DNA of 64,000 bases from Amphiscolops sp. MND2022 (Eukaryota), in NCBI GenBank assembly GCA_964187785.1, contig OZ076414.1, forward strand, positions 53,382,001 through 53,446,000. The letters are read 5' to 3'. Position numbers and translations under genes: made by a program. Position 1 is the stretch's first letter, and every line of letters starts with the position of its first letter. This document shows, in pieces, positions 33,466-63,017 of this stretch. The notes under the pieces were generated by a model. The model was not told the origin of the DNA, did no database searches, and was given only the letters and a program-made list of their open reading frames with translations.

Positions 33466-33494
33466 TTATCATCATCATTTGTTAAATTTGCAGC

Positions 33495-34489: not shown

Positions 34490-34712
34490 GGACAATTTCA
34501 TTGAGTTTCTGGCCGAATCAGTTGTAAACATTTTGCAAGGTGTAGTGCCCGGAATCAGGCGGAAAGACATTGAAAAGTTCAAGCCACAAATTGTGCGAAT
34601 CATTTCGACCAAAGCAACTCTTGCGGAACAGCGGGCCATATTCACTTCCCGAAAGGGGCTCTTGTTGCTAGATGTTATTATCGAGCATGTTATTCAATAC
34701 TTTTTAAGTTAG
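34407..34712 (+). CDS. Conserved small Polinton protein overlapping the ATPase 3' end (101 aa)
   Basis: R..ML...EDNFIEFLAESVVNILQGVV...R.IF...GLLLL, a pattern typical of the ORF that follows Polinton ATPases. Confidence 0.55.
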   Translation: MTTQQVITLQHFKSLSLVDRLDMLKRCEDNFIEFLAESVVNILQGVVPGIRRKDIEKFKPQIVRIISTKATLAEQRAIFTSRKGLLLLDVIIEHVIQYFLS

Positions 34713-34717
34713 TAGTA

Positions 34718-36365: not shown

Positions 36366-36407
36366 AAAAAATACATTTCACAAATCATTTTTCAGCTTTA
36401 ATCGACA

Positions 36408-36872: not shown

Positions 36873-36907
36873 CGGTCAATAACATTCGTAATATTATTCT
36901 CAAAACA

Positions 36908-38206
36908 ATGACGACGACGGCGGCGCACATAATACCTAAACCGGCAACCCACTCTAGTCTGGACATTTTTTCTAAGCCAGAAGTGCTTGTGTCTTTTGAC
37001 AATTCGTTTGAACAAGAAACGTTGCCAGTCACTGCACACGATGCACCAGTTTTTGAGTTTGTACTCACCACTGATCGAAACATTTACTTGGATTTGCAAA
37101 GCGTCGAATTAAAGTTGGAGGCAAAAATTGGAAAGGGCGCCAATGGCAATACTAATTTGGAGACGGAGTTGGCTGGAGGCAACACTGTAGCTAAAGCAAC
37201 CGACAAAGTCAGCTTCATCAACAACACTCTACACTCCTTCTTTTCCAATTGGGACATTTTAATCAACAATGAAATTGTACACACGTCCAACAATTTGTAT
37301 GCACAGAGAGCTTTTGTTGAAACGGAACTGTCCCACACACAGGGCTGTGCCACAACAAAGCTCATTACGCAAGGCTACAACTTTGAGCCCGCCACCGGTG
37401 ATATGCTTGCCCACCGAGAAACATGGACCTTAGGTTCCGCTTCAAAGACATTTTATGGAAAACTGGCGGTGGATTTCCTGGCTTGTGATCAACTTCTCAT
37501 TCCCAATTGTTCTATGCGAATTCGACTGACACGTAACAAGCCCGAATACTTGCTGCAAAGTGCTGTCACCAACCCTGCCTTCACCCCAAAAATTGAACGA
37601 GTGTCAATTTTTGCTCGTTACTACACTGTTGCCGAAAACTATCACGTCAATTTACAACGATCTCTACTCAAGTGGCCTGCTAGATACAACTATTTTGAAG
37701 TACGCAGCAAGACATTTGTGATTCCAAGGGACCAAAGTCATTTTATTCGTGAAGACATTTTCAATGCAGAACCCATTAGACGCATGGTACTGGCCATGTG
37801 TCCCAACAATCAGTTTACTGGACGTTGGACAGACACTCCGCTCGCATTCCACAAACACAATTTGAAGAAAGTGCGAGTATTGCGGAATGGTGTGCCAGTG
37901 GTGGAATATAGCACAAGTTCCAACACTCAACTTTACTTTAAGACTATTCAAAACCTCCATTTTGATCAAGACGGTCCCCTAATCAAGTTGGACAATTATG
38001 AAAATCACTACTATCTAGTTTTCGACCTTACCTCCACACTACAGTGCAATCAAGAAATTTACTACCCCGAAATTGTGGGAGCACCAATACGGATCGAGCT
38101 CGAATTTTCGACCAACACTAGCACGCCTTTGGAGCTGTTTGTGCTGGGAGAACGATTTACAACAGTTCAAATTGATCATACAGGCAAAGTGTTGAAACAT
38201 GGATAG
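36908..38206 (+). CDS. Major capsid protein (double jelly-roll)
   Basis: SLDIFSKP, FINNTLHSFFS..DILIN, LYAQRAFVETEL, GKLAVDF..DQLLIP, FDLT motifs typical of the Polinton MCP; intact. Confidence 0.92.
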   Translation: MTTTAAHIIPKPATHSSLDIFSKPEVLVSFDNSFEQETLPVTAHDAPVFEFVLTTDRNIYLDLQSVELKLEAKIGKGANGNTNLETELAGGNTVAKATDKVSFINNTLHSFFSNWDILINNEIVHTSNNLYAQRAFVETELSHTQGCATTKLITQGYNFEPATGDMLAHRETWTLGSASKTFYGKLAVDFLACDQLLIPNCSMRIRLTRNKPEYLLQSAVTNPAFTPKIERVSIFARYYTVAENYHVNLQRSLLKWPARYNYFEVRSKTFVIPRDQSHFIREDIFNAEPIRRMVLAMCPNNQFTGRWTDTPLAFHKHNLKKVRVLRNGVPVVEYSTSSNTQLYFKTIQNLHFDQDGPLIKLDNYENHYYLVFDLTSTLQCNQEIYYPEIVGAPIRIELEFSTNTSTPLELFVLGERFTTVQIDHTGKVLKHG

Positions 38207-38627
38207 TGCAGCCTTGCTACAAGTTATTTCCAAAATTCCCGCACTAAAATATCGATACTTGGGTTGCTTCGACCCCAATACTTTCATTTTCCCAATGCCA
38301 ATAGACACTTTTCAAATTGTAAACACCACTACAGACGTTGAGGGACATTGGATAACGTTGATTCGCTTATCCAACGGTTTTCACTATTTTGGAGATTCCC
38401 TGAAAGCAACAAGCTTGAATCAGTACCCAATGTTGTTTACCCGACTGCCACCACCGCCAGAACAGAAAAAGACAACAACATTATTTCTACCTTTGAACAC
38501 TTCAATAAAGCAGGTCGATTCCTTGTGTGGTCTCTATTGTATTTATTTTGCATGGAACTTGTTTGATAATACACCTAAAGTGACGAATGATTTTGAATTG
38601 TATCAATTGTTTTGTAATCTTTTATAG
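38199..38627 (+). CDS. Adenain-like cysteine maturation protease
   Basis: Catalytic set GHWI (H), FGDS (D), Q..SLCGLYC (Q, C). Confidence 0.9.
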   Translation: MDSAALLQVISKIPALKYRYLGCFDPNTFIFPMPIDTFQIVNTTTDVEGHWITLIRLSNGFHYFGDSLKATSLNQYPMLFTRLPPPPEQKKTTTLFLPLNTSIKQVDSLCGLYCIYFAWNLFDNTPKVTNDFELYQLFCNLL

Positions 38628-38659
38628 AAAAAAAATGTTTGTAAAGAAAGTTTTTTTTT

Positions 38660-39557
38660 TCAATCAGTAATTGCAGGCACATGTTTTTTGCGAAAATGTA
38701 AATTTAAAACTACAAGACCCAAACTGGTAAAGGGAATTAATTTTCCCTTCATATCTCGAATCTCAATCTGTATACTATTGAAATTATCCAAACAAACATT
38801 TCGATACTGCAAATTGGAAAAGGATCGGTTGTCGTAAGGGTATATGACAATCAAATCCTCATTTCGTTCGTTGACGAAATGTGAAGGCACGTAAAAGTTG
38901 GTTCTTCACATTGCCCACGTTACTAAAGTCTACAATATCACTGTATACAAAAATTGTGTGAAAACGTAAGATATCACAAGGGTAGGGAGCAATGATTTGG
39001 TTGGCTTCACAGTACACAGCATCCGTTCCCAATCCCAAAATTTGAGCCAAGTCATCACTTTGAATTTTGAAGTATACACGGCTCTGTCCTTCTGTAGTTC
39101 CTTCAAACGTGAATGAAAGGTTCAAAGTTTCCTCGTTGTAAGCAAAGGTCATTGTCCTCTCCATGTTTGTAAAAGTAGCAATTTGAGAATTCATTGCGTC
39201 AATAATTTGACCAATTTCTGTGTAACAACCCTTTGGAATGTTAAAAGAACGATATTGATTCAAAAAGGGCACATCTGGATAACTATTTATAAGTTCCTTG
39301 CTGACAGTATCAGGTTTGTTTACAACAACACGATATCGTTGAAGAGTCGGTGTAGGAATATAGCCTAGCGTGAATTCACCGTCGGTGACATTGTATACTC
39401 GGTTTGGGAACGAAATGTCTGTCAGTGCAACTTCCCATTCACTACCTCTGCCCAAATTGATTGGATTTGACATAAAGTTTGAAAAAAATGCCAGAGTATT
39501 ATTTGGATAAATGTCCAAACTTGCATTAGACAATAGATCAATGTAAAAGGAAGTCAT
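38660..39557 (-). CDS. Minor capsid (penton) protein, interrupted by a 1-nt frameshift near 38877-38879
   Basis: N-terminal FYIDLLSNAS..IYPNNT..F...WEVAL..I.FP; the C-terminal IQIEIRD..GKLIPF...LHFRKK lies in the +1 frame (ORF 38660-38890). Confidence 0.85.
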
Positions 39558-39616
39558 TGTTTTAGGGAACTGTATAGGAAACACAGAATTTGATTGAATG
39601 AGAGTCAATCACTCAT

Positions 39617-40012
39617 TCATTCATCTTCACTGCTGCTGCTGGAGCCAATCATCAGCTTTACCCTCTTTAGTTTTTTCTTTTTCGGTTGGCGAGAACATTT
39701 TTCGTCGTCGACATCCGCCGAAGTTTCTGCGTTGCTATCTGTATTATCGGATATCGACCAATAAGATCGTAAGGATTCTTCGTATTCTTGTGTTCCCAAT
39801 TGATTCTCCGTAATGGGCACTAGTGTGTTTTCCAAACGATTGAACTCTCTTCTCAATTCCAGACTCAAACAACCTGGATGTGTGCATTCCATTTCTTTCC
39901 AGTCATACGTTTCCAACAACATCAAATCAACAGAGTATTGACGGGGCAGTTGCGGCGGACTAGGAGCTGTCAAGTCAAAAACACTTTGGTCGTCAGTGTC
40001 ACTTTCTCCTTG

Positions 40013-40044
<32 letters not shown>

Positions 40045-40330
40045 TCGATCTGAGCATTTTTTTTGCCGTATCAACTGTAACTTGAGCACTAATTAAGTGC
40101 AATAAATGAACCGGTAGGAGAAAAGACTCAACAATTTTCCATTCATCATTTGTTGCTGAGTTTTTCACTTCCTTTATTAGGATTGCCGACGCTCCGAAAT
40201 GTGTCTTGTAGGCAAATATACGTTCGACGTCATTACGTTGTGTGAATATGTAAATCATTGTTTCCAACAACAACAAATTTATTCTGAAAACAATAATGTT
40301 AAAACTACTGCAAAAAAAAACAACAATCAT
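39617..40330 (-). CDS. Polinton hypothetical acidic protein with C-terminal NLS-like motif (alternative start 40258)
   Basis: 237-aa ORF with a poly-Asp tract and QPKKKKLKR near the C-terminus. Confidence 0.6.
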
Positions 40331-41098
40331 TTTGTGTTAAGGAGATTCAGCAGTGACCAGTAGAATGGATGAGAGCTGCTTGCTTGAAGAAGCGTGTTTT
40401 TAATTGATGGGAAAAAAGTTTATAAAAATTATACGTTCTAATGCAAAAATTTTTGCAGTGTGGAAAAAGGGTAGAATTTGCTATGTTACGTTGATCATTG
40501 TGAATCTTGTATAGTTGTCGGGTGGTAAACAAGAGCTACTCTAACTGCTATTCTCAGTCAATAAAGATGAAAACAAAAAAAATTTTTGAAAAAAAAATTC
40601 AGAACAAAATATTGAGTGAACCCTAGACATGGGCACATCAAATTCGTCTAATTTTTCGTCCCGAATCTAAATTTTGCATCAAAACGGCGTTTCTCGTAAA
40701 ATTGGGGTTTTTCAAAAATTTTGCCCTATGGGGGGATTTTTCCCCTTTCGGAAAATAATTTTTCAAATGGTTATTTTTTGGTCTTTCCAATGATATATAT
40801 GACAATGGGTGTTCGTGATAGTCATTGACAAGTGAAATTTCGAGTTTTAAAATTGAAAAAAATGACTGAAACTAAGTTTTTCCGTGAATCGAAACCATGC
40901 ATTCATGTTTAAATTTTAATTCCAACCAGAATATGACAAAGATACCTCATTTCAGAATTTTTCATTTTTCTCCATGATAAGGGGTTGTTGACGTTACAGT
41001 TATAAGTAGAAATTGAATATGTACAAAACTAGATTCACATCCTTAAAGTGAGTCTTGAAGAATATTAGTGTTAAATGAAGAAAACTACAACTTAGCTA

Positions 41099-45730: not shown

Positions 45731-46381
45731 TTAATGACCACAGGTTTTCTCAAGAATGCCTGGTTCAATTTCATTACAACTTGTAGGAGTCTCGCTCTTT
45801 TGGATTTCTCTTTCTGCGAAAAATTGATTGGGATCCAATTTAGCTTGCTCTTTCAAATACTCTTCTAGTTCTGGTGTCATTTCCGTTGTATCTTCACCAA
45901 TTGTTTCTTTTCCACCGTCGCATTTAGCTCGTTTATTTTTTTGTTTCTCTTTCTGCTTCAAGCGTTTCTCACGCTTTTTCGCAGTTTTTAAATCAGCTAA
46001 TGCTTCATTCTTCAGCAATTTTTCCTGGAATTCTTTTCTCTGTTCTTCTTCTTGGCTCAAAGCTTCATAAAACTGGTTTCGTTTTTGCTCACGACGACGA
46101 ATTCCTCGATACACATGAAATTCTCCGCTACCGGCAGCTGCGGATGATCCCATGACCTCTCGAACAAATTCTGGAGCCTTTCCCAGTTTAGGACCCTGTG
46201 GTCTCTCTGGTATTGACACAGGTCTATCAGGATCTTTCATCATCCTTTCAATTTTGAGTCTCTGGAAATCAGTGTAAGTTTTACAAGGGACAAATTCCTC
46301 TTTTTGTCGTAGAATTTTGTATTTCTTCTGCTTCTTCGGATCATCTTCATCGTCTGGAGGAATGTACATAGACCCGCTCAT
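45731..46381 (-). CDS. PRKRIP1: PRKR-interacting protein 1 homologue (DUF1168 family)
   Basis: QRLKIERMMKDPDRPVSIPE...APEFVREVMGSSAAAGSGEFHVYRGIRRRE...KTAKKREKRLKQK. Confidence 0.93.
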   Translation of the reverse strand: MSGSMYIPPDDEDDPKKQKKYKILRQKEEFVPCKTYTDFQRLKIERMMKDPDRPVSIPERPQGPKLGKAPEFVREVMGSSAAAGSGEFHVYRGIRRREQKRNQFYEALSQEEEQRKEFQEKLLKNEALADLKTAKKREKRLKQKEKQKNKRAKCDGGKETIGEDTTEMTPELEEYLKEQAKLDPNQFFAEREIQKSETPTSCNEIEPGILEKTCGH

Positions 46382-47404
46382 TTTCCAAACCTAAAAAACG
46401 ACGATAGTGAGACAGGTTGAACAATATGTAACAAATACCGAAAAGTTACGTTTCAGGAAGACTTTTTCTCCCCCTCTCAAATGACATATTTGATGATGTA
46501 ACTTTCTTCCTACTATCACTACTAAAAGACTTTATTCCTTTTGATTTTAGGAATATCAAATCAGAACCGATGGAACTATGTCAAATTACTAGCAATCCAC
46601 TAAAACTTACGGAACTATACGGTCCGAGACCTATCGGTTAAATTACGAAATGGTTTTTACAAGTGTTGTATCATGGCGAATGTAAAGTTATATAGGGGAC
46701 CTCTGTTTTTGAGAAAACCCAATCTGTGCTAGAAAGATCGCAAGTCGAGAAGTCACTATTGGGTCTCCGTTATAACCTTATTCAACAGGGCTTTGATAAA
46801 AAGTCATTCCGCATCAGAAATCTCACTCTCGTTTACAATGCTGTCAGAACTGATCCCAATGCATCAATCTCAGTTGATAAAGGTCAATGTCAATGACTAA
46901 ATCAAGCCTAATTGTTGTGAAAGACTTGTTAAATAGCTTCAGAGATGGCAATGACAACATCTCAGACGCTGTTTTGTTGGTTTTCGCTTGGGCTGAAAGA
47001 TCTATCACAACCCGGTGAGATAATTCCATTTGTATTTAATTTAATCAATTTGAGGCTCAGCGTGGGTGGGCGGAAATAGTTCGAAGGAACGGGATCGAAA
47101 ATCAGAGTTAGTCCTCAGGTCGACAATACCAAATTTTTGAATGGGATCGAAACAACTCGGATCGAAATTTTTATAACGTAGTCAGATATGTTCACATACC
47201 CCTAGTGCCCTGAATGCAGGAGCGAAGCGAAGCGGAGCGACGTGCCATATGGCCATGCCTCAATGTTGCTACTTGGCGAAGGGAGCGAAGCGACCGACCC
47301 ATACAACAAATACGATAAAATTCGACCGCATTCCATTCGATCCCTGTCATTCGATCAAAAGGTTCGACCTCAGTCCTTTCGACCAGAAAAATTCGACCTA
47401 TTTA

Positions 47405-48125
47405 TGTAACGTCCGGCTAGCGGCGCACATCCCGGAAGTGGGACAATGCCTAGGGTGCTTAAACAGGAGACCGTTGTCTTACTACACTCCTAGACACTGG
47501 CTTTTCTCCCAAAATGGTCTCCATGGGGGACTTTTCTAACGTCTAAGGAGACTCCTCTAGTTAGAGCTCCGAGGCGACGCGCCGGCACTCTCAAAGTCCG
47601 GACACGCCCCACAAGCCTGTAAAAACGTTCCTACATAATTCTAAGTCTTCCTACGACTTCCTACATACTTCCGAGGTCCAAAAAATGTTTATCCAAAAAA
47701 TACCATTTTGACAGTTAGGTATATGAAATGCTGACCTAGAAGGTCTGGCATAAGCTAAACAGAAGAATATATTACGAATCAACAAATTAAGGGGGACGAG
47801 CCCCAAAAGGGAGTACAGTTACTGTTTGTAGGTTTTCGGGAATCCAGTCATGTCCTTCTGGAACGGTTTTGCATTCTCTCCCAGAGGGATGGCACAACAC
47901 CGGGTAGCATTCGTCACTTTCGGCACTATGCGAGTCTTCATGTCAATAGTCGCTCTGCTTTCTGGTTCCTTTTCTTCCTTGCTCTTTTTTCGGGCGTTCT
48001 CTCTCTTCTTTTTGTTTCTTTTTTGGTTTCAACGACCTGCCAGGTCGGCCATTTTGATTCGCACACTTTCTGGTTGTTGATCGAATTTTTCATCAAAAAT
48101 TTGGTGCTGACTGGTGGACGTTACA
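47405..48125 (-). repeat. 3' LTR (721 bp)
   Basis: TGTAACG...CGTTACA; about 5 substitutions versus 59444-60164 by manual comparison. Confidence 0.97.
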
Positions 48126-48133
48126 TCCTCCCC
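48126..48133 (-). promoter_or_regulatory. Polypurine tract
   Basis: Minus-strand GGGGAGGA immediately precedes the TG of the 3' LTR. Confidence 0.6.
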
Positions 48134-48908
48134 GGGCCGTAGTTTGTCGTCCTCGGCAAACGAGAGGATGTACGCACCCAAAGGGTACTCTGAGATTTAC
48201 ACAAAAAAAATCTTACTTCAGAGCTGAATTAAATTGATCTCACATTGCTATTCTTTTCGTTTCGTTACTGCATGTTTAGCATTCCAAAGCCATCAAATTC
48301 AAAAAGCACTAGTTTCAAGGTTAAAAACTCTACAGTCGGCTCTTAAAAAAAGAAGCTTTTTCATTAATCACTCAGTCCAAGTTAAAATTTCTTTTTCTAA
48401 AATTGGGCCCCTGCGCGGCCAGGCGAGTAACAACAGCTTTTGGGCTTAGTAGAAGTTTTAAATTCAAATCAAAACGGGAGGGTACCGAACCGGGACCCGC
48501 CCAGAGGATAGAGCGATATCGTATTGTTGCATTGGTAGCATAATAAAGTAAATATCAAACAAAAATTCTGGAATCAAACTTCATTGCACCGAAAGTTTTC
48601 AGCACCAGTGAGATAACGTAGCATAACTAAAACTAAAAGTTTGCACCAATGTTTTGACGATAAGATCTTCTGTGTTTTACAGCATTCCAGTGGTGTTGGA
48701 GGGTCCAGAGGACTCCTTTATCCCAACAGCTGATCTTGTGGGGCTATCTGCGTGGAAGTGCTGGCCATGGTGTTTACTGCATTTTGGACGGCCGAGTCGG
48801 GCGCCTCGGAGGGGGGCGATGATTCCTCATCCATAGTCAGTAGGTTGTTAAGCTCCGACTCTATGTCCGCCGCCTCCATGTTTGAGATACTAGTCTCCGC
48901 TTCGTCTC

Positions 48909-51900
48909 TTACAGGGGTAGCGGCATCAGAGAGATTTCGTCTTGTACCCCTTCCATCAATGACTCATCGGTGTCTTGAGTAAGGTAGGATGTGGGAGGGA
49001 CGGTCTGGGGGCTGCCAGAGGCAGCTTCGCCCAACCCGCTAGTTCCCGGGATAGCTTCGGTTGGCTCTAGGTTTGGCAGTCCGTCCGCCAGTTCTTGATG
49101 ACCATGCTGGGTGAATAGCTGCTTAAATGTTAGTATTCCCCTAGCGTACTGTTCGCCTACAGCTCGAGTCTGTTCTCGCTGGAGACCATGCAGGCGCACG
49201 AATATCTCTAGCGCAATGCGCGGGTTACTGGGAACGTCTTTGCTCACGGGCAGGTCCTTTCTGTTGGGTTCTCTCGCTACAGTTGGAACAGTTGTTAGCA
49301 GCTGTTGAAATGTCTGGTGGATGGCGAGGTCTACGAGTTCCGGCTGGGCCCAGCACGTGATGGTGTTTAGAATTCTGGCGGTATGATCACGGGGCTCCGC
49401 TCTTGCACAGTACATTCTGGAAGTGTCGCATGCATAGGGATATAACAACCCAGTGGGCTCTTCTCCTTTCCGGCGACCACCCAATCTTTGGATAATTGTA
49501 CTCAAGATGCGCAAGACAACTGGCACGTCCCATCCATCAAAAGTTGCCACTGTTCCATTGTTTGGGTTAAGGGGGCATGTAGCCAAGCGACCGGGTGGAT
49601 TTCCATTGGCAGTGGGAGCGAGCTGCGTGCTCGCGCTTTGATCATCATCAGGTAGTTATGCTCCACCTGTTGGCGGTCCTTGTTTATGGTGTATGCCATG
49701 GGAGGTCGTAAGTTGGCGAAGTTACGTATTATTGATTGATAGGTGGGACCCTGAAGGGGCCCATTGGAGGTCACGAAGTGCAGAATTGAGAGCGATGGGG
49801 CTACTGCAGCCACTCGCAAGGCCTGCGTTGGATACCGCAAGGCCATAACTGCGCCGAAAATGGGCCAGATTATAGGAGCAATGAATGGGATCAAGTCCTC
49901 AGTTTCCACGAGCATCAATGTTGCCATTTGTGTCGGGAGCAGGAACCCTGGAAGTTGACTGGGGTCTCGGTTGATGGCCGGGCACTCATCCAGAGGATGC
50001 ATGATGCCAGAAACATTGACCCAGGTGGAATAAATCCATATCAGGAGAGCTTGAATGTTTAAATCTAGTTGCGCTTTCAATTTCAAGGAACCCACCGGGT
50101 CCAGAGTTTCAATGAGCGCATATATCCAGCTCCTTTGATCTTGCGAAAAGATCAAGAAGCTGAACAGGGCTGAGCCTCCTTTGTTAAGCACGAGTTTTTG
50201 TATGAGGGATGACGGTCCTCGGTACATCATAGTCAACCCCACGGCCATCAAGTATGCTAGCATTTCGCTGATGGTGGCTCTTTCCATGGCATCCATGTAC
50301 AAGCGCATCCGTTGCTCATCTAGGCCGTACTCGGCCTGTACTAGGGAGGGAAGCCAGAAGGGAGAGATGTTGTGAAGGAATACAGGAAACGGTATGCCTA
50401 GTCTCTCCGCGACTTGGCTTAGAGGTTCCCGCAGTTGGTCGTGCCATGTTCGGTACGTGTGTGTTGGCTCTCGAGTATTCCTTCGTACTATATCTTGGGC
50501 CAGTATTGACAACATGGCTAAGGTAGGTGATTTTAGTCCAGGTGCAGCGTCCACCGTTACTTGCGCTATAGGGAAGATGGACGAGTTCTTCCTATCGCTT
50601 TGAATCGTTTCAGTTTTCTTCATCAGGCTCGTGAGTTCTTTGTGGAACTTGGGTTCGTGCGTCTTTTCATCCAGGGTGGATTCATCTCGGCGTTCAAACC
50701 AGAGGTTATCCACCAGGTTATCACGCTCATTTTCGTTTGGATCATTTAATATCCTGTCTCCGCGCTCGCTCATCGATCGACGGGCCATTTCCATGCCATA
50801 GTCGAATGCTGTGGCCTCATCTATTATCATTTGGGAATTGCCGCGGTAACCAACGTATGACTGGAGGGCCTTGGAGACTTCGGCGATGAAGGCCGGGTAC
50901 GAAGCTTCGCAGGGACGCCAACTGTTGTTATTGATGCGTAGGTTGGACGCCACGATGTAGAAAGGCAGATCTCTTGCATATGCGGCCTCCGTCACTAAGT
51001 ACAAGAATTGTTGAAGGGTCCGGGGAAGGTATACGTAGCCTGGAGGTGACATGAACACTGTCCCAGTGGTGGCTTTCTTTCTGCGCATGGCTTGGACAAT
51101 GTTGGCCATGGTCTCTACATAGTTAGTTACCTCGTCAGTGACGAACCCCTCGGTGAACCCCTCATGGTCCGGCCGGAAGAATTTCAGGGTGCCCCGCAGA
51201 GCGAGGTGGTCTATTACGTTCGAATATACCAACAACGGAGGAAGTGGGATGGTTTCTGTTCCCGCTTGGGTGAACATTTTGTCAGTCACTTCGGCCATCT
51301 CGTTCAGCGTGGTACAAGGCATATTTAGTATTCTTACATCCATGAGGGTGTTGTGGGAATTGAAGGAAGACTTCATCGTCGAGTCGACGAAGAAGGCTAT
51401 CCTAGTTTTCTGTAGGAGGTCCTTTCCCATGGGCAAGATTGTAACAGGGTCCCGTGCATAGTTCTTGGTTCGCAGGCGGTCTTCGTCAAAGCGGCCAGGG
51501 CGCTGTCGGAGGAAGCTGTCAGGAACACGCATGTACGTTGAGTTTACTCTCTCTAGTTCTGCCCGCATGCGGTTAAACCATGGGGGGCATCCGTCTCGAG
51601 TGAACACGGGTTTCTTGACGGGGCGATTGTAGAGTACTCCCACTGTGGCTTTCTCTATTTTCTGCCTTGTGGCGAGGTCCCCTGTTCCAGTAGCGACCTC
51701 GAACTTCTGTCGTAGTGGGTCTTCTGATGACGTCGTGGTTGGCACTTCCCGCTGGAGACGCAGTGCGTCGCGTGCAGTGATATCCAGCTGCCGTTTTTCT
51801 GCATGTGTTAGGAGCTCGCGCATTACTCTCGGTCTCCTGGTCTCTGGTCGTGTGGGCGATGCCGAGGGGGGTTGCGGGGTAGTGGTCGAGCTCGATTGCC

Positions 51901-52783
51901 CAGCCTGCTCGGCCGCCTCTCTAGCTCGCTTTCCAGCGTTAATCTTCTCCCGGAGGTCTACCACGGTGCTGGCCGCCTTGCTCTCAGCTTTCTGCTGTTC
52001 TCGTTGGCGTTCTCGCAATTGTGGGTCCATCTGGAAGCCTACTAGGCTGGTTGGTTCCGAGACTTGTGGTGGTTCGGCTCTGGAGGACGTTTGGATCAAT
52101 TCTTCATAAGAGTCCTTGAACGTCACTGTTCTCGCGGGGCGGCTCTCTCTGGGCTGTTCCTCGCTCAGGGTGGTGTTTGTTGTGTTACCTACTTGCACCC
52201 CTCCCCCCTGAAAGGCAGATGGAAGCATGAAGTTGGATGTCTGGGTTGTGAGCAGTCGGATGCCGTCCGATGCCAGAGGCATGGGCGGTGTTAGGACTGG
52301 GGGTGGCACCATTGGCAGTGTGCAGCTGAATTGTACAGGGTGTGGTGAGGGCAACTGGGTTGTAGTTGGTGTCTGCAACACCGATTGTGAAATGCGCAGT
52401 GATCGCTCCTGGTCCATGGGGGGCCTAGTAGGCTCTCCAAAGACTATGTGGGAGCGGGGATCTATCAGGCTATGGGTCAAGTCGTACCCGTGCCAGGCAC
52501 CGTCGCGAAAGGTGGCAGAGCGCTCTATCGGGCCGACCCGGCTGGTGATGGTGAGGCTGACATCGGAGTACGCCGCCTGGGCTTGGATTTGGGCGATGAT
52601 CATGGCAAAGCCAGCGATCATTGTGGGTGTCGCTCCGTTTAGTAGAGTGTCTTGAACAAGAGCTAGTTGGTCGACTCGACCATCTATTTCGCTCGTCATT
52701 GGAGGTGCATCGCTCCTTGTGGTTTGTTGGGCACGCGCAGCGTTTTGGGGTGCAGGCAGGCGGTTTCGCGCAGATGCGTCCAT
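48909..52783 (-). CDS. Env-position ORF with central SGNH-like domain; 48909-49586 is a probable frameshifted continuation
   Basis: ATG at 52783 after a strong TTTTTCAG acceptor (52889); Pro/Thr-rich N-terminus and coiled coil; IAFFVDS / NMPCTTL / LLVYSNVIDHL / VFMSPPGY strand pattern; hydrophobic helical C-terminus. Confidence 0.6.
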
Positions 52784-53115
52784 TGGAAATGATGATAAAG
52801 GAGTGTTTAGCACCGAAGATTGTGATGGCAAGACTGATTTGGTGTGATAACTGGGGAAGCCGCGCAGAGGCGAAGCAACAGGACAAAACTGAAAAACAGG
52901 TCACAGTTGGAGTTAAAATGTCACGTAAACTGATGGTCACTCAAACTTTTGGGACGAACACACAAAATATAAGGCTAAAAAGTTCATGTGGTTATTTACT
53001 AAAATTTGCACTCACCGGTGCATTATTGTTAAAACCTAAAGTGCTTTCCTAGTTACAAAAAGGCAATACAAAAGGCCAGTGGCCTGGTTTGCCAAGAAGA
53101 GAACGAAACGTGTTC

Positions 53116-53640
53116 CTAACTACCGCCAAAATCGACTGACGTCACCGATGCTATCGAGACATAGACGCGATCGTGCAAGATTATCGCAATATTCTGGTCT
53201 GCAAAGTGATCGCGTAGCGTGGCGTACCAGGCTGGTAGGAGGTTCATCGACCGCTCGGGATCATATATGGGCAAGTGGATTCTGTTAATTTGGTTTCGAT
53301 GGAGCTGGAGTATCAAATTCGTCAAGCAGGCATGGAGTACTTCATGTAAGAGTGGGTGTTTATTCGATGCTCGGGTACATAGAAGGAAAATTTCGTTATT
53401 CCAAGGTGCAGTTGGCGAGCGGACTAAACGAATTGCGGTGCCGACTGCCGGCCTCAGGTGAAATATGTTTTCCTGACCGTATTCGCGAATAACATAACGG
53501 GTGGTGGCAGAGTAGGAGAGCAAATCTGCCGGGCAACACAGTATCACAGTGCCAGGGGCCTGCAGGATATCTGTATTGGCATAAGTTATCCAAGGTAGGT
53601 AGTTTGGTCTGGTCTTGGGCTGGGTTATGAGCTATTTACC
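53116..53640 (-). CDS. Macrodomain-like (OARD1/TARG1/Poa1p-type) module, separated from the integrase ORF by a stop and frameshift
   Basis: The frame extends upstream of the called ORF: ITYANTDILQAPGTVILCCPADLL...IFLLCTR...LHACLTNL...IHLP...W..LRDHF...IILHD, matching the macro fold pattern. Confidence 0.7.
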
Positions 53641-53706
53641 AGTAGTATTGCTCTGGTCACCATCAGGTTGGGGTGCTAGGTGCTGTAAGATCGCTTTGCG
53701 GTCCTC

Positions 53707-56700
53707 TCAGACGGTGCGGCGTAGCGGTCTACCTCCCATGTTGGTGGATGACCAATCGTGTGCTATGGAGAGTGCTTCGTTGACCGTGACAGGTTTTTCC
53801 GGTGTATAAGATTGTCGGTCCAAGAAGTATATCTTCGCCTGTCGGCAGAAGATGACCGCAATCAATTGTAGCCAATGTTGGCTCAGGAACTTGCCGCGAT
53901 AGACGTCGGCCAGGTGGAAACAGAGTGTATTCTCAGGTTCCGTTACAGTGCGCAAGCTCTCTAAGCACATCAATAGCGTTGTGGGAGACACCAACGTCGT
54001 TGCGTCGAGAGAGGTGACGAGTAGCCACCATCCTTTGGTGGGCTGGTATATGTCTCCCGGCGGGGAGGCAATGCCGTATTTCTCCCACAGTTGGTGTGCG
54101 GTGATACAGCGAACCATTTCTGGGCTGCTGTCCTTTTCCGCTAGCTCGCCGAACGTTATTGAGGCTGGCAAGGGCGGTATGATGGCATGGAGAGTGAACT
54201 CCAGACCGCTTCGGAGGGGTGGTGTCCACTCCTTGAATCGGTAAGTGGGGCAGTCGGAGGGAGATGTCGTGTGCATTGCTCTGAGCGTTTCTTCCAGCGG
54301 TGGTATCACTTCTCGCTCTACGCTAGTGAATGTTTTCTCTACCGTGATGACTAGGTGGTGTACCAGCGGAGGGGTCTCAACTTTTTCTCGCTGGGCTTTC
54401 ACGGTCAGGATCTCGTGTTGTGGATGATATGGTGCCCTGGCTATTGAGAATTCTCTTGCAGGGATAACCGCTCCCCGGGCCAATCGGTGGTCCGGCGAAT
54501 CGCAGGCCAGTCGCTTGACGCAAGTACAGTTACGGGAACCACAGGTTCCACACTTATACCGCGGTGCTCTATTAGCTCGCAGTTGATATCGTGATGTTTG
54601 CGACGACGGTCCTATCTCAGAGTTCCGGTTTTCCGGTGGTGATTGGGTCTCGGGTATCTCTGGTAGTGTCATGGCTCGGTCCAGTATTCGAGGGGGTGCT
54701 CGAGTGCTTACCCTTGTCTTAGGGCCTCTTCTGGGTCGCGTGGTTTGTGTTCGCGAAGATGTGGTGGTCTTACTGGATGGCATGGCGCGGGGTCGTCCTC
54801 GACCTGGTGGTCGGCCTCGAGGCCTTCCTCTGCGGTTGGTGGTATCGGGATGTGTTGAGCACTGGACTGGACTTTGATGGACCATCTCTTCCTCTCCCTC
54901 GATTCCTGACGGTGGTTTTGTTTCCACTGGACTGATTGAGTTCTCCGATCGGGGGCCGAACAGGGGAAAGTTGCTTAGGGTATCTGTCAGAGACGGATTA
55001 GATAGTAGTGGGGCCGAGGTCCCTGAGGGGGATGATATCAGACTAGGAGGTGCGGCTGGCTGAACTTCCTCCTGGTCGGAGTACAGTGGCTCTAGGTCGT
55101 CTAGGTCGGGGAACACTGCTGGCGATGCTGGGTTCTGGACTGTCGGTTCATTCTCTTCCCTTTCTGAGTCCGAGTCGGAGGGATATCCGAAGTGACTGAA
55201 TCTTCTTCGGGGTATTCCTTGCTCGAGGGCCGTTTGCGTACGAGTCTGAATGGTACGGGGTGGGACCGATCCTGTCGGTTCCATTTCGAACGACGCTTCC
55301 GGAAGTTGTTCTGGTAGGAAGGAGTCTCGAGAGATGTCCGACGTTATCTCTTCGTTGCTTTCCTCCACGTACGGATCGGCAATGATGGCTACATTCTGGT
55401 CCAGCCCAAAGGGTTGGTGTGCAGCCCAGTCCCAGGGGGCGGGCACGTGTCTTTTCAATCTTTCGTAATGGACCTTTTGACCGGTGTCTAGCACATATAG
55501 TCGTCCGTCCTGCAACACATCAGTCACCTTGTGGGGTCCACGCCATGCGCGAATCAGCTTGCGGGTGCCACCCTTAGGTATGATATGGCAGAACACCCAC
55601 ACCGCATCGCCTACGGCGTGCGCTTTGGCCTTGAGGTGGCGGTCAAACTTTAGCTTTTGCCTTAGCTGTGCTTGGTGTGTGTTTCTTCTAACTAGTTCGT
55701 GGATTTCTTGTTGCCTGGCCAGAAGGTGTTCTACGAATTCTTCTTTGGAGTCGAATCCTCGCGCAGCAAATTCCGGGTAGATGAATGATAAGGGAATGGA
55801 CTTTTCGGCTCCATGTTGGAGCATGTAGGGAGAGAATCCCGTGGTGGCGTGCCTAGTTGAGTTGTAGGCACCAAGGATTCCATCGATGTGCTCGTCCCAA
55901 TCCTGCATTCGCCGCGACGTGTAGACTCGGAGCAACGTAAGCAGTGTTCGGTTTTGTCTCTCCACAAGACCATTTCCTCGGGGATGCGCCGGTGTGGATG
56001 TCACCTTTGTCACCTGTGACGCCTTCATTAACTCCTGCGCGATTTCAGCTGTGAAATTCGTGGCATTATCCGATTGCATACGGGCTGGAGTGCCGTGCCT
56101 GGCAAACCATTTATTGAGGATAATCTTGGCAGTGGTTTGGGCATCATATTCATCGTGGGCACAGGGGATAGCCTCGGCGAATTTCGTGAAGTGGTCTATT
56201 ATGACCAAGAGACCGGTGTTACCCGACTCGGTTTTGCACAGTTTCAGATGGTCAAATTGCACTAGGTCGTTGAAGTTGCTGCTGTTGATGTTCTGCAGGG
56301 GGTAGCAGGGGTTTCCGGCAGGGTGTTTGGTTTGCTGGCAGGTTAGGCAGTGCTTGATGTGATTGACTATGTCACGCTTGATGCCCGGCCAAGTGTGTCG
56401 CTCTTGTACTCTTGCTAGCACCTTCCCTACACCCTGATGTCCCGATTCGTCGTGCGCCCTATACAAGATCTCGTGTTGGTATAGTTGGGGCATGACTATC
56501 ATGCACGGTCGCACGTGCAGCGCACGCTGTTGCGGAACGTAGTTGACGCAGAGGATGTCGTCCGGATTCAGGAAGAGCAGGTCTTTCTTTTGGTGGAAGT
56601 AGCGCCGCGCGAAGTCCTGCACGTCTTCGGGGAATATGGCGTCCTCCAATGGTTCGCCTTTCATGAGTTTTCTCAGCAAAAAAAAAATTTTTTTTTTAGT

Positions 56701-56715
56701 TTTTTTTGTGATCAC
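53707..56715 (-). CDS. LTR retrotransposon integrase with long C-terminal extension
   Basis: HHCC finger (AHDESGHQG...CLTC), DDE (QFDH, QSDNA, LVER), WRGPHKV, AT-hook-like RGRPRGRP-GRGRP, CGTCGSRNCTC, and a degenerate macro-like C-terminus. The N-terminus starts at an A/T homopolymer junction. Confidence 0.93.
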   Translation of the reverse strand: MITKKTKKKIFFLLRKLMKGEPLEDAIFPEDVQDFARRYFHQKKDLLFLNPDDILCVNYVPQQRALHVRPCMIVMPQLYQHEILYRAHDESGHQGVGKVLARVQERHTWPGIKRDIVNHIKHCLTCQQTKHPAGNPCYPLQNINSSNFNDLVQFDHLKLCKTESGNTGLLVIIDHFTKFAEAIPCAHDEYDAQTTAKIILNKWFARHGTPARMQSDNATNFTAEIAQELMKASQVTKVTSTPAHPRGNGLVERQNRTLLTLLRVYTSRRMQDWDEHIDGILGAYNSTRHATTGFSPYMLQHGAEKSIPLSFIYPEFAARGFDSKEEFVEHLLARQQEIHELVRRNTHQAQLRQKLKFDRHLKAKAHAVGDAVWVFCHIIPKGGTRKLIRAWRGPHKVTDVLQDGRLYVLDTGQKVHYERLKRHVPAPWDWAAHQPFGLDQNVAIIADPYVEESNEEITSDISRDSFLPEQLPEASFEMEPTGSVPPRTIQTRTQTALEQGIPRRRFSHFGYPSDSDSEREENEPTVQNPASPAVFPDLDDLEPLYSDQEEVQPAAPPSLISSPSGTSAPLLSNPSLTDTLSNFPLFGPRSENSISPVETKPPSGIEGEEEMVHQSPVQCSTHPDTTNRRGRPRGRPPGRGRPRAMPSSKTTTSSRTQTTRPRRGPKTRVSTRAPPRILDRAMTLPEIPETQSPPENRNSEIGPSSQTSRYQLRANRAPRYKCGTCGSRNCTCVKRLACDSPDHRLARGAVIPAREFSIARAPYHPQHEILTVKAQREKVETPPLVHHLVITVEKTFTSVEREVIPPLEETLRAMHTTSPSDCPTYRFKEWTPPLRSGLEFTLHAIIPPLPASITFGELAEKDSSPEMVRCITAHQLWEKYGIASPPGDIYQPTKGWWLLVTSLDATTLVSPTTLLMCLESLRTVTEPENTLCFHLADVYRGKFLSQHWLQLIAVIFCRQAKIYFLDRQSYTPEKPVTVNEALSIAHDWSSTNMGGRPLRRTV

Positions 56716-59443
56716 AACTACAAATTACTACACGCTAAGTTGACTTCTACTTTTAGGTGACCGCAAGCCTTGTTGCTATCGTTAAATGAAGACTAATGGG
56801 TTAGCTTCAAACTCGTCGGCGGAAATTTCTTTTTGTATCCCTCGCGCAGAGCGCAATGGGGTTCACTTTTGGTTGTTTTATACGCTTGTACGACGAGGTT
56901 GATTCGGGAACAATGGATGGGCGATGGACGGGGAATGATCTGGGGATTGATTGGGAACGTTGGGGTTGAGTATTGAGTGGTACTCTGGTCTATAGCCCCA
57001 CGGCTCGTGGGTCAAAGAATTTACAACGATATGGGTGGTCTCTTGTGTACTTGTTCTACTTTCTCTACGCGTCCCGCAAACCTGGTCTATGACTGCTTTG
57101 GTGCTCCCGGTCACACTCTTGCACCCTCAGGGTAGAGTATATGTGGTTATGACGAGCAAATTGCACCTAGGCGACTTTGGTGGCGGGAAAGAAACGAATT
57201 TCGGTTTTTAGGGTTACCGTCTCTTAGTCTCGTAGAGTGTTTAGTGGGAGGTCGCTGGTCTTGGGGTCAGCCCTACGCGGATTTTGTAAGTACAGTGGAC
57301 CGTGTGGAATTTGCTTGATGCGCTAAACAGGTCGTTTCAGTCCTGAGTGAGGCACATCAGGACTAGAAGTGCGCGGATTTTCAGTCAAAGTTCACTCGAA
57401 ACGCTGTTTTTCTCGTCAAGTAACACCTCCGGGGAAGGTGAAAATCACTTCTAGTGCAGCTAGCGACCTGAAAATTTCACACCGTGTATTATACTGGCCA
57501 AATCGTGGGGAATTAATCTCCGATTGCGTCAAAAGTGACCCAATGGGTGTTACGGCCACTTAACAATGTTTATTAAAAAATTGACTATGTCGTGAAATTC
57601 GCAAAAAGTGGTATAACTCGCGTCCTAGGCGTCCCAGCTACCTGAAATTTCGCATGCGAGCGTAACTTATGCTTACGCAACAGAAAAATCCAGCGGCGAG
57701 GTGCCTGGATCAATATCGGGCGATCCGAAGTGACAAAACCTTGATGTACCGGAGGTACCACTTCTTTGGGTCAAAATTCACAAAAATGTCAATTTCTCAG
57801 CTTCGGCCGGGAGTTGGCTGCTCAAATTGCACAAATCGTCGGGATTTGGTACCCCGAGGACAAAAATAGGAAAATAAGGGTGCCGGGATATCCCGGAGAT
57901 ATCACACCAGGCTCAATTAAATTTTCGATTTTTCGGCAATTTGGTACACTTTCTGAACAAAACTGCGGCTAAGTTATCTCTGCGGGTATTCACAGTAGGG
58001 CTATCAAAATCACGCTACTAGCGTAACTTTTTGCGCTCTACACAATAATGCAATCCGTTTTTAGCTCTTCTTGTTAGGAGAGATTTCGACTTGTTGAAAA
58101 TACGAGGTTGCCGAATTCCGAAATTGACGCAAAAATAGTGCGTTTTCGACTATTTCTCAACAACCACTGTTCAGAATTGCTTGCAGTTTTCGGCGTTTGC
58201 AACGTTACGCTCTCTATTAACTGGAAATAGGCGAGCAAAACCTGGTAGGTTTCAAACAAGGTCTCTCACAAAATTTCTCGATTGCACTTTTTACACCCTC
58301 GGAACAGTACTGAAAATACGTGTTTTCGTCAATAATCCGATGTTTTTTTTGTTCTCTGGTGTTCCGTTTGGTTTTATTAGTAGAGTTAGGATACGTAATA
58401 ACTTTATTCAGGGGGCTGGGGTAGTTGCAATAATTATTTTGATTTCAATTACACTCAGATCTATGGGGTCCTTCACTCAGGTCTATTTTAATGAAAGAAA
58501 AGTGATGTTAAAACTTCAATTTATATTGGGGGCAGTCAAAAACCGTCTTGGTAGTAGTATTGCGTACTACCAAGCGCAACAACAAAATTTTTGGGCCTTT
58601 CAAGAGGCTTGGGTACAAACGCCCAAGGCTTCGCCCTTACCAAAATTGGTCAAAATGGCCAATGTTGCCGATTTTTAAACAAAAATTGCTGAATTTTTCA
58701 TGTTTTTCAAAAGGATAGCCCAACAAAAAATTTTGTTCTCGACCTGGTAGGTCTGACAGAACGTTTTTCAGGTATTCCCATAGGCTGTATACAATTCTAC
58801 AAGATTCTGGCTTCCAAAACGGGAAAATTCGATATTTGAGCCATTATTAGTGTTATTTTCGATGTTTTCGAGCTCAAACTTCAAAATAATTGATGCAAAC
58901 ACCCTGTGGGTATTTTTCTCAATTAGTTCATGCAAAAACAGGCCTGGGAATACTAATTTTGGGCTAGAAAACGTAAAGGGAACGAAATAACCCAGCTATC
59001 TTCGGTGAACCGGCACCAGGTGGGGAGGAAGAGGTTATGACGTGAAGCACCTGTAGTCCTGCACTCAGCTAGCTCGGGTCGTCACGAACCGTCCTCGCAG
59101 TCCCTGTACATTGCCAATTGGCTGAAAAGAAGCTGGAAAACCCGTTAAAACACGTTCCGGATAGGCCGGAATAGCTCTTTTAATAAGTACAGATAAGGTA
59201 CAAGGGGGTACTCTGTCTCAAACTGCTTTTTCAGGCTGGAGACCTCGGAAACATGCAGGAAACGCAGGAAAAACACTAATATAAGGCCCAAAGGGCTAGA
59301 AAAAAGCAATAAAAACAATCCAGGACCCTCCCAAAAGCTTCTCCTAGATCCGGACCTTACAGGGCCGGAAAGCAGGAGTTGTTCCTCGCAGGACGCGGTA
59401 AGGAAAATTATCCCTCTGTGGTCGCCATAAAAACTATTCCAGA

Positions 59444-60164
59444 TGTAACGTCCGGCTAGCGGCGCACATCCCGGAAGTGGGACAATGCCTAGGGTGCTTA
59501 AACAGGAGACCGTTGTCTTACTACACTCCTAGACACTGGCTTTTCTCACAAAATGGTCTCCATGGGGGACTTTTCTAACGTCTAAGGAGACTCCTCTAGT
59601 TAGAGCTCCGAGGCGACGCGCCGGCACTCTCAAAGTCCGGACACGCCCCACAAGCCTGTAAAAACGTTCCTACATAATTCTAAGTCTTCCTACGACTTCC
59701 TACATACTTCCGAGGTCCAAAAAGTGTTTATCCAAAAAATACCATTTTGACAGTTAGGTATATGAAATGCTGACCTAGAAGGTCTGGCATAAGCTAAACA
59801 GAAGAATATATTACGAATCAACAAATTAAGGGGGACGAGCCCCAAAAGGGAGTACAGTTACTGTTTGTAGGTTTTCGGGAATCCAGTCATGTCCTTCTGG
59901 AACGGTTTTGCATTCTCTCCCAGAGGGATGGCACAACACCGGGTAGCATTCGTCACTTTCGGCACTATGCGAGTCTTCATGTCAATAGTCGCTCTGCTTT
60001 CTGGTTCCTTTTCTTCCTTGCTCTTTTTTCGGGCGTTCTCTCTCTTCTTTTTGTTTCTTTTTTGGTTTCAACGACCTGCCAGGTCGGCCATTTTGATTCG
60101 CACACTTTCTGGTTCTTGATCGAATTTTTCATCGAAAATTTAGTGCTGACTGGTGGACGTTACA
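59444..60164 (-). repeat. 5' LTR (721 bp)
   Basis: Direct repeat of 47405-48125. Confidence 0.97.
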
Positions 60165-60279
60165 TTACAGCCACCCGCTCAGCGTTTCTACCGGTCTACT
60201 GGGATAGTGGCTGGTATGAGTAGTTTTTGGCGTTTTTTTTCAATGTTATATTTCATTAATTTTAATTTTAACTTATCTT

Positions 60280-63017
60280 TTTAACAAATCAAGTCTCCAG
60301 ATTTTTCGATGGCTTTAGAAACCCCCAGCCCGGTTTTCCCTTGTTTTTCTCCATCTTCGTCGTTTTTGTTCGTTTTGTCTCCACTCTGAAGATGAGCATT
60401 GTAACACGTGTCGTGTGCAGTGCCTGAACCATAAATCGTGGGCTCTGAAAAATGTCCCGGAGATGAATCAATGAGTTCTGCTTCGCCCAAAAATGTTGTA
60501 AACCCTCTGGCAGAATTTTCTGGGTAGGATGTTCAAAATGCCGTAAATGGTTCCATATCAAGTGTGTGGGTATTACAAAAAAGCAGTCGGAGGAGGAAGA
60601 TTTTTTCTGCAGACCTTGTCAAGTTGTGGAAACGGGTGCTCCACTGCCGCTTACTGTTGATACTCTAATAGCAGTCACTAAAGCAAACCCCACCATTCTG
60701 AAACGAGTACCCAAACACGCAGGCATTCCACTAGCGAAGCTTCTCAATAAAGCGCTTGATGGCATAGTAGCAAAGCCACACGATGAATCGTGCTGGGTGA
60801 GTCTCTTTCTTCAATTTTGCGCTATTATGAAACAGCGAAAACGATCTGGCAAACGACAGAAATGTGATCTGGGGAGTATCATATGCGAGAGAATCAACAA
60901 AGGTGCAGCTCTTGGCGATCTTGTCGTCCCGCGTGAACTGAAGGACTCTAAACTCGAGCAAGAATGCGAAAAAAGGATCAAGTTGATCTCCGCCAAGCTC
61001 GATGAGGGGAACGTCCGAGCGGGAATAAGACTAGCAGCGTCTGACGACTCAGTAGCTCCCTTTGACAACAACACTTACGAAAAACTTCAGTCGGAACATC
61101 CCCCTCGAGCCCCAAATCATGCCCAACAAAATGTCGAAGATAGCCTAATTACGTTTGAACCCATCGTAGGGAAGGCAATCAACTCCTTCCCTTCTGGGTC
61201 TTCGGGAGGACCAAGCCTACTTGTGCCCCAGTTGTACAAAGACCTTATCTCGAAGAGCAAAGGTCCGTAGGCAACGAGTTTCTCCAGAAGCTAACAAGCG
61301 TACTAAATATTGTCTTGGAAGGCAAAGTCCCTGTAGGTTTGAGACCTTTTTTCTTTGGTGCTAAACTTATCGGCCTTCGGAAAAAAGACGGCGGAATTCG
61401 ACCAATTGCTGTTGGAAATACCATGCGTCGAATAATCCTCACATCTTTTCTTTCTTCGGAGAGAAAGTTATTCAATCGCAAGAGGGCTGTCAGCAAGGGG
61501 ACCCCGAAGGCCCAGCTCTCTTCTCCGACACTATTCAAGACCTCGTTAACCAAATGGTTTCACAATATAATGTTTGGTACCTCGACGACGGAAACCTTTC
61601 GGATGACTATCGGACGGTTCTTGAGGACCTCAAACGAATCATCGCTAGCGCCGACGAGTATGGGTTATCACTCGAGAAAACTAAATGTTACCTGATTTTC
61701 CTCGGGAATTGTACCGAAAGTGAGAATTTGGAAAATTTGGGGTCGCCAATGGGCGCAAGTGCTCGACGAGACCTGTTGAACAAAAAAATGATTGAATTGC
61801 AAAAACTATCTGAAGTTGTTAGGAAATTAGATGCCCACTATAGATTCTACTTGTTGGAGAACTGCTTTAGTCTACCTAAACTACTATACTTTCTTCGTAC
61901 CAGCCCTTGCTTTGAAGAGGTGGACCTCCTACAGCAGTGTGATTCCATTATCCGCAAATCATTGTCCAAAATCTGCAATGTGAATTTTAATGAAAGCAGC
62001 TATACTCAAGCGATTCTCCCAGTCTCCAAAGGGGGCATAGGCATTGCATCGGCTTCCCAGATTGCTCTTCCTGCTTTTTTAGCTTTAGCATCGGGTGCGA
62101 AACGTGCTTTGTCGTGTATCCTCCCGGAAGATTATGTTGATGCATCGTTTGAAAAGGCTCTGGATTTATGGTTGGCGAGGGCGAACCTGACAGAAGCACC
62201 GTCGGACTCCATCCAAAAACATTGGACCTCTCCTCTGAGCGATGCCACTTTTGATCAACTTATTACAGACCTTGATGCGGAAAATGTCAAAAGGCTGAAT
62301 GCTTATCAAGACCCCTTTAGTTCAGCTTGGCTGAATGTTGTACCAAGCAAAAATGTCGGTCTGAAGTTGACAGATCAGCAACTGCGCATCTCCTTATCCC
62401 TCCGCCTGGGTTCGAAAATTTGCGAGAAACTCACTTGCCGCTGCGGTAAACTTGTCGAAGAGGACGGACATCATGGTCTTTCCTGTGCCAGAAGCGCGGG
62501 ACGTTTCTCGAGGCACCACAACCTCAATACTCTCGTGAAACAGGCGCTGAGTTCCATCAAAGTTCTCTCACTTTTGGAACCATATGGTCTGACCCGAACA
62601 GATGGAAAGCGCCCAGATGGAATTACCCTAGCGCCCTGGGAGGAAGGCAAGCAATTAGTCTGGGATGTTACTTGTGTCGATCTTCTCGCCCCCAGTAGAA
62701 TAGAGAACGGGTCTGTTGCCAACCCAGGCACAGCAGCGGAGGATGCAGAGGAATTGAAAACGGCTAAGTACGTTTGTTTGACTGACAAAGGATACATCTT
62801 CCAACCCTTAGCCTTTGAAATTCAGGGAGGAGTCGGACCTTCCACGTCTACCTTCTTGAAAAACCTGTTTAAAAAATTGTGCGTGTGCAATCAAGAAAAT
62901 AGAGCCGGGTCCTTTTTTAGGCAGAGACTCTCTCTCGCAATCCAGGTAGGCAATGCGGCCAGTGTAGTTGGAACGGTTTGGGACGAAGACCACTTAGGCG
63001 AACTTTACTACTTGTAA
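60280..63017 (+). mobile_element. CRE-clade-like non-LTR retrotransposon (PHD finger, RT, restriction-like endonuclease), frameshifted and internally deleted; ends approximate
   Basis: PHD finger CFAQKC...WVGCSKCRKWFHIKCVG...FFCRPC from 60467; KKDGGIRPIAVG; QQGDPEGP; WYLDDG; CRCG..DGHHGLSC; RPDG...WDVT...KTAKY. Confidence 0.85.

Follow-up and report, generated by a model that had tools for sequence, protein, structure and literature searches.

The retroelement at positions 47405..60164 of a 64,000-nt stretch of the genome of Amphiscolops sp. MND2022 (assembly GCA_964187785.1, contig OZ076414.1, positions 53,382,001-53,446,000; hereafter the window, meaning that whole stretch) is very probably a single copy, recently inserted, internally deleted and now dead, from an abundant Ty3/Gypsy family of long terminal repeat (LTR) retrotransposons. 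An intact member of this family would consist of a long leader, a polyprotein of about 3,200 amino acids (aa) carrying Gag, protease, reverse transcriptase (RT), RNase H and integrase followed by a long tail, and a separate open reading frame (ORF) of about 1,370 aa with a predicted SGNH domain. The focal copy lacks the part from gag to RNase H and is a defective Gypsy derivative, not an autonomous member. A reading of the same DNA without database searches (the sequence-only reading) had proposed either a helper or satellite element or a deletion derivative of an undescribed Gypsy lineage; it is the latter that is borne out by full-length relatives, among them the 3,219-aa predicted protein P0119, none of which is named. 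The element and its immediate flanks comprise the following features.

47055..47404, no strand: host repeat, left part; a small inverted-repeat element measuring about 350 bp, with the insertion inside its right terminal repeat
47402..47404 and 60165-60167, no strand: target duplication TTA, 3 bp, left and right copies, from comparison of the flanks
47405..48125, minus: 3′ LTR, 721 bp
48126..48133, minus: polypurine tract of 8 nt adjoining the 3′ LTR, read directly from the sequence
48718..52783, minus: extra ORF in env position, in three pieces here and about 1,370 aa in intact relatives (98.6% identity to P0144)
50780..51460, minus: predicted SGNH/GDSL-hydrolase-fold domain within the extra ORF (structure model and fold searches)
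53116..53706, minus: remaining Pol tail behind two in-frame stops, ending in a 171-aa domain (homology to P0119)
53707..56664, minus: open 985-aa pol remnant with integrase (HHCC and core, by Pfam), low-complexity linker and start of the C-terminal tail; protein P0112
56680..56715, minus: deletion junction, an A-run then a T-run abutting pol; equivalent of P0119 residue 2031
56686..59443, minus: 5′ leader, 2.76 kb, without gag-pol homology (tblastn, profiles)
58340..58678, plus: antisense ORF of 112 aa inside the leader, with a 23-member cluster; a marker only, with no function claimed
59410..59427, minus: candidate primer-binding site starting with TGG, 16 nt inside from the 5′ LTR, read directly from the sequence
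59444..60164, minus: 5′ LTR, 721 bp, TG...CA
60165..60185, no strand: host repeat, right end, with the second copy of its 9-bp duplication (copies at 47055-47063 and 60177-60185)

Structure, insertion and decay of the element

Self-comparison of the window reveals one long direct repeat marking the focal element, which lies on the minus strand and spans 12.8 kb. Its two LTRs, 721 bp each, differ at 5 positions (0.7%), as had been noted from the letters of the sequence, and have TG...CA ends. The ORF ending at 53707 carries the zinc-binding and core domains of an integrase (Pfam E values of 7.8e-17 and 2.7e-8), in agreement with the earlier assignment, and the other four ORFs of the element gave no match when scanned against Pfam. 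A search of Rfam returned no match, and no tRNA gene was found in the window.

The leader, which has nine upstream ATGs and whose sense strand has no ATG ORF reaching 28 aa, had been described as 2.7 kb with no gag or pol motif, and homology searches agree. From the 5′ LTR to the integrase, a distance of 2.76 kb, tblastn with 111 proteins of relatives matched no remnant of gag, protease, RT or RNase H, and tblastn with 181 proteins gave three trivial matches, each of at most 31 aa and with an E value of 0.014 or worse. The match of the element to a profile built from 12 full-length polyproteins is confined to profile positions 2019-3188, and residues 2031-3219 of P0119 align to 56685-53119 at 89% identity. 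Because this alignment starts at residue 2031, the focal copy lacks the first 2,030 residues of the 3,219-aa polyprotein, corresponding to a loss of at least 2,030 codons, or at least 6.1 kb, and an intact element would measure at least 18.9 kb. The bases just before the junction were considered as a native gag start and rejected, as a profile of six natural N-termini scored below 0 throughout the leader. A hairpin at the junction showed no unusual stability against shuffled sequences (z -0.82). The loss would have arisen through a template switch during reverse transcription or through a later deletion in DNA.

Part of the leader appears to belong to the family. The 14 other listed members of the 23-member cluster of the antisense marker ORF are 89-99% identical, and three of the listed contigs are apparently common to relatives of the extra ORF; this apparent co-occurrence suggests that at least the marker-bearing stretch of the leader belongs to the family. 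Marker ORFs in the leader and LTR were sought in the protein collection, in which one of seven in a first set and none of four in a second were present. Sequence comparison thus supports a probable family origin for the part around the marker ORF, and the distal 1.6 kb (56,690-58,340) is without such support.

The flanks of the element record one integration event. The sequences on its two sides match the opposite terminal repeat of a host inverted-repeat element at 7 of 9 and 11 of 13 bases when aligned in the 3-bp register, compared with at most 5 of 13 in seven other registers, and the 9-bp duplication of this host repeat occurs only at 47055 and 60177. Since the flanks are the halves of one host terminal inverted repeat, both LTRs derive from one integration. 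The split repeat of about 350 bp with its 9-bp duplication is presumably Mutator-like. A chimera, in which the 5′ part of one insertion and the 3′ part of another were joined by a larger deletion, would be in keeping with the LTR ends, at which no target-site duplication of 4-6 bp was found and only 3 bp are duplicated (chance of about 0.017); however, the matching halves of the terminal inverted repeat and the restriction of the host duplication to these two positions largely refute it, and it was rejected as exceedingly improbable.

The copy is decaying and now dead, and its coding part is not near-intact, contrary to the sequence-only reading, which had counted about 7.8 kb of near-intact coding sequence. 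In the Pol frame, relatives read through two points at which the focal copy has in-frame stops (53707-53709 and 53632-53634), and these separate the final 171-aa domain from the integrase. The extra ORF, which is 98.6% identical over 1,072 aa to the 1,372-aa P0144, is broken by frameshifts near 49,570 and 48,930, with a short deletion at the latter. These stops and frameshifts have accumulated since insertion. By simple arithmetic, four lesions in about 2,540 codons give a roughly even chance that a 460-codon integrase stays open without selection, and as an open integrase is thus expected about half the time by chance, its openness is no sign of selection. Nothing shows that the focal copy supplies integrase; with its LTRs and putative priming signals in place, it would have passive mobility only, using the proteins of intact copies, as the standard LTR replication cycle would allow.

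The parent family and recurrence of the junction

Full-length polyproteins are abundant among the relatives of the element. An integrase search run on long proteins, which therefore selects for long proteins, returned 91 matches. Along the full query, 57 of these show 93-98% identity, and a precomputed RT domain is present in every one of the 57. The window protein P0112 belongs to a 633-member cluster that includes proteins of 3,219 and 3,238 aa, the former being P0119, in which a CCHC knuckle, protease, RT, RNase H and integrase follow one another in Gypsy order. The best sequence match of the family profile to a solved structure is the Ty3 Gag-Pol polyprotein (E value of 8e-78). P0119 and P0159, a 1,364-aa relative of the extra ORF, lie on contigs of the same size (240,981), and the linkage inferred from this size suggests that autonomous copies probably carry the extra ORF as well. 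The parent family is present in hundreds of copies, and its intact member would measure at least 18.9 kb, continue for about 700 aa beyond the integrase and encode an extra ORF of 1,370 aa, as judged from the predicted sequences. No named close relative was found among the protein matches, and the literature covered, which excludes Repbase and most subscription journals, contained no account of this family or of a Gypsy element with this set of domains. Any novelty may lie in the intact parent family and not in the focal copy, which is ordinary.

Recurrence of the deleted structure was scored among predicted proteins in two samples. The first comprised 133 proteins, the search of long proteins being left out, of which 43 cover the integrase start; the second comprised 72 further proteins, of which 30 do so. 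In all 73 (43/43 and 30/30), the RT-bearing P0240 among them, the sequence continues natively upstream of the integrase, and the junction is shared by none. Of the 511 proteins stored, the window's own is the sole one that starts at the junction or includes it, and both long proteins of the focal copy are seen on one contig only. As far as proteins reach, the focal copy is the only one without gag-pol at this point. The sequence-only reading had taken such a one-off loss, combined with full-length copies of a known family, to count against it; the full-length counterparts were not found as a known family.

The subfamily to which the focal copy belongs includes RT-bearing members. P0240 has the residue of the window at 10 of 11 diagnostic sites; in the linker it agrees with the window at 96 of 100 residues, as against 87 of 100 for P0119. 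It carries RNase H together with an RT that matches that of P0119 at 156 of 161 residues, with one change in the YxDD motif; the subfamily is consequently not an RT-less lineage. P0220 and P0279 also run natively across the junction position. P0113 contains RNase H and runs into sequence that matches the present LTR at 20 of 20 residues, and together with P0240 it provides the longer autonomous partner with the same LTR for which the sequence-only reading had suggested a search. In view of these abundant full-length partners and the absence of the junction from the 73 scored relatives, the helper or satellite element that had been proposed, borrowing Gag and RT in trans, is not supported.

In-frame deletions at other places in the polyprotein were identified in P0061, P0062, P0213, P0242 and P0244. 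Six of the 11 proteins listed as candidates (P0014, P0020, P0021, P0036, P0056 and P0126) were set aside, since they reflect length variation in the divergent N-terminus of Gag. Internally deleted copies with varied breakpoints argue against an assembly artefact, in which the locus would be full length in the animal and the assembler would have joined leader to integrase at the A and T runs. The junction does lie on adjacent homopolymer runs, and hundreds of near-identical copies exist. One frameshift of the extra ORF falls within a short stretch of a single base, and the target duplication is one base under the usual size; both are typical sites of long-read error. Both flanks, however, come from a single host repeat that was split, and the contig is therefore coherent over the whole element; an artefact is unlikely.

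Several observations weigh against a one-off deletion. Recurrence was scored on the predicted proteins of relatives, not on the DNA of other copies, and 15 members were listed for each protein cluster; a scan of genome contigs for the DNA of other copies gave no match. The nearest sisters, P0197, P0204 and P0206 (97-98%), are fragmentary proteins whose start lies downstream of the junction, at which they are therefore unscorable. In a tree whose RT labels came from a motif test, by which P0240 was mislabelled through its changed motif, the integrase of P0112 falls in an unresolved fork beside, and not inside, the group of P0220, P0279 and P0240. The target duplication of 3 bp is shorter than the usual 4-6 bp. 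The integrase is whole after the junction, with an in-frame ATG seven codons on.

This last observation and the unscorable sisters also favour an amplified non-autonomous sub-lineage, in which a deleted master kept leader, integrase, tail and extra ORF and borrowed Gag and RT in trans. The tight 23-member group of the leader marker ORF points the same way, and there is a precedent in a rotifer family, mentioned in the accessible part of PMC5408684, that is non-autonomous, keeps env and lacks most of pol. Such a sub-lineage is nevertheless quite improbable: its junction was met in none of the 73 scored relatives, copies of the same subfamily bear RT, the two long proteins of the focal copy each occur on a single contig, and the tail and extra ORF that it should have kept intact are broken by two stops and two frameshifts. 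There is likewise only a slim chance that the junction is common to the approximately 25 nearest sisters (97-99% alike), which would then make up a satellite lineage, still with integrase, of a giant Gypsy family. Such a lineage would borrow Gag and RT and make integrase, a macro-like tail and an SGNH pseudo-esterase aiding particle formation, traffic or evasion of host defence. A single deleted copy of an abundant family remains the preferred reading.

The extra open reading frame and the Pol tail

The sequence-only reading had described an ORF of about 1,100 aa in env position. That ORF is the first piece of a broken ORF that measures 1,363-1,372 aa in intact relatives, and it does not resemble an envelope protein. 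Nor is it peculiar to the focal copy, since its family forms clusters of 118 and 342 members; 20 cluster-level relatives and 171 representatives were found at an E value of 0.001 or better. The features of a retroviral env (signal peptide, Cys-rich ectodomain, C-terminal membrane anchor) were not seen in three of three intact relatives: their N-terminus is hydrophilic, they contain seven or eight cysteines over a length of about 1,370 aa, and their one or two hydrophobic peaks (1.7-2.1) lie well away from the C-terminal end, where no anchor is present. From these sequence properties the extra ORF is judged not to be env-like. By sequence it had no match in Pfam, NCBIfam, PDB sequences or ESM features, and no useful Pfam match was found among 30 scanned of 150 listed relatives.

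Structure prediction points to a hydrolase fold in the centre of the protein. A first model of 697 aa was poor (predicted local distance difference test, pLDDT, of 38), and its Z values of 7 or less were not relied on. The central 227-aa domain, modelled from 53 sequences, reached a pLDDT of 90.9 and matched SGNH/GDSL hydrolases with a best Z of 12.6 (root-mean-square deviation of 3.3, 174 residues aligned), esterase and GDSL entries making up the top 50; the OSK domain of Oskar matched with a Z of 9.1. A Foldseek search of the PDB placed the ZfL2-1 esterase 4c1b at rank 3 (E value of 1.2e-3), with no match at 0.001 or better, and a viral library agreed. The domain is therefore predicted to adopt an SGNH/GDSL-hydrolase fold. 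The approximately 700 aa that follow it are predicted to be helical, with low confidence.

The catalytic residues of this domain are partly conserved, with SGNH blocks assigned by motif analogy and not by residue-level superposition. Serine occupies block I in 26 of the 28 rows with a residue there, and asparagine block III in 40 of 47, whereas the presumed histidine position of block V holds arginine in 29 of 38 rows and histidine in 2. The domain thus appears, by this analogy, to have lost its catalytic histidine. A histidine next to block III is conserved in 40 of 47 rows, and that it serves as a substitute base is speculation. The product of the extra ORF most likely serves the parent as an accessory protein that would bind lipid or RNA and have little or no catalytic activity, and not as an envelope, according to the modelled fold.

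A protein of a related lineage, P0064 (2,166 aa), carries a canonical SGNH domain (Pfam E value of 6.8e-8) and a second, degenerate one that is 27% identical to the domain of the extra ORF, fused to integrase and tail and without RT. P0064 is probably a rearranged copy.

The Pol tail may end in a macro-like domain. The last 171-aa domain has an ESM feature match of 0.84 to the PF01661 cluster, graded by the tool as a lead only, and its motif pattern is one that we take to be macro-like; no macro domain was matched in seven profile or sequence searches, so that the macro label given earlier is reduced to this lead. The Pol linker contains, in the interval 54400-54800 (minus strand), an AT-hook-like motif with a weak Pfam match that is present in 9 of 21 relatives, along with a conserved cysteine cluster, a combination that possibly serves in DNA or chromatin targeting.

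Neighbouring features and comparison with known systems

Other mobile elements lie in the same window. A Polinton/Maverick-like element occupies 26959-40336, with an A32-like ATPase at 33686-34489 and an rve integrase at 35250-36365 (Pfam); ORFs at 28435-31533 and 26959-28374 are presumably polymerase-like, judging by motif, and those at 36851-38206 and 38859-39608 are taken to be probable capsid ORFs. Decayed gag, protease and RT sequence of another Gypsy family, with an RT about 32% identical to that of the focal family, is found at 6800-11274 (minus strand), and a non-LTR retrotransposon, now broken, in which Pfam identifies a PHD finger and an RT, lies to the right of the focal element at 60467-63017 (plus strand). 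A 483-bp direct repeat at 12135-12616 and 14131-14613, whose copies are 99.4% identical, 1.5 kb apart and without TG...CA ends, may represent a recent duplication or else an element of unusual kind flanked by repeats. Long single frames at 20030-23047 and 45731-46390 (both minus strand) belong to host genes, which encode a USP5/13-like deubiquitinase (zf-UBP, UCH and UBA domains) and Med11-like and DUF1168 proteins, indicating a eukaryotic host.

The TG...CA LTRs and, apparently, the short purine tract of the focal element and the parent order of gag (with CCHC), protease, RT, RNase H and integrase are those of Ty3/Gypsy elements (Metaviridae). The parent differs from these in its size of at least 18.9 kb, the approximately 700 aa past the integrase and the 1,370-aa extra ORF, and the focal copy in its lack of gag to RNase H. 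In retaining intact LTRs and putative priming signals without RT, the focal copy resembles LARD and TRIM elements and the rotifer TelKA2n. LARD and TRIM recur as multi-copy families of one shared structure, whereas no recurrence of the focal structure was found among the scored proteins. The focal copy is of little weight in itself, as abundant LTR families shed internally deleted copies, and others with different breakpoints were met here.

The parent bears a likeness to the very large Gypsy elements Burro and Ogre, in which extra domains are fused into the polyprotein and extra ORFs are present. However, the extras listed for Burro in the accessible text of PMC6431247 are MATH, BIR, BCL2, ankyrin and env, with SGNH and macro not among them there, and the size of Ogre is attributed in the same text mostly to long LTRs, which measure 721 bp here. 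Macro ORFs are mentioned for fish endogenous retroviruses in the portion of PMC4977317 that was available.

SGNH domains have been acquired by long interspersed nuclear elements (LINEs), by Penelope-like elements and by LTR elements of rotifers; the accessible parts of PMC3905857 and PMC5408684 describe their role as open. A parallel in arrangement is found in the Vesta LTR retrotransposons of bdelloid rotifers, in which a GDSL/SGNH ORF3 stands in env position, replacing a true env, and the invariant catalytic residues are intact according to the available text of PMC5408684. In the present family, in contrast, arginine predominates at the presumed histidine (29 of 38 rows) and the domain lies inside a 1,370-aa protein. 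The same fold is shared with the ZfL2-1 ORF1p esterase and the non-catalytic SGNH domain of Oskar, although bacterial SGNH enzymes outscore both against the extra-ORF domain (Z of up to 12.6). ZfL2-1 differs in being encoded by a LINE ORF1 and in being active, with a full Ser-His-Asp triad, as reported in the part of PMC3905857 available. The parent's version of the domain is conserved across subfamilies though its catalytic histidine is apparently lost, and this high-copy pseudo-enzyme family, beside the canonical lineage of P0064, offers a natural pair in which to ask whether it is catalysis or binding that retroelements use.

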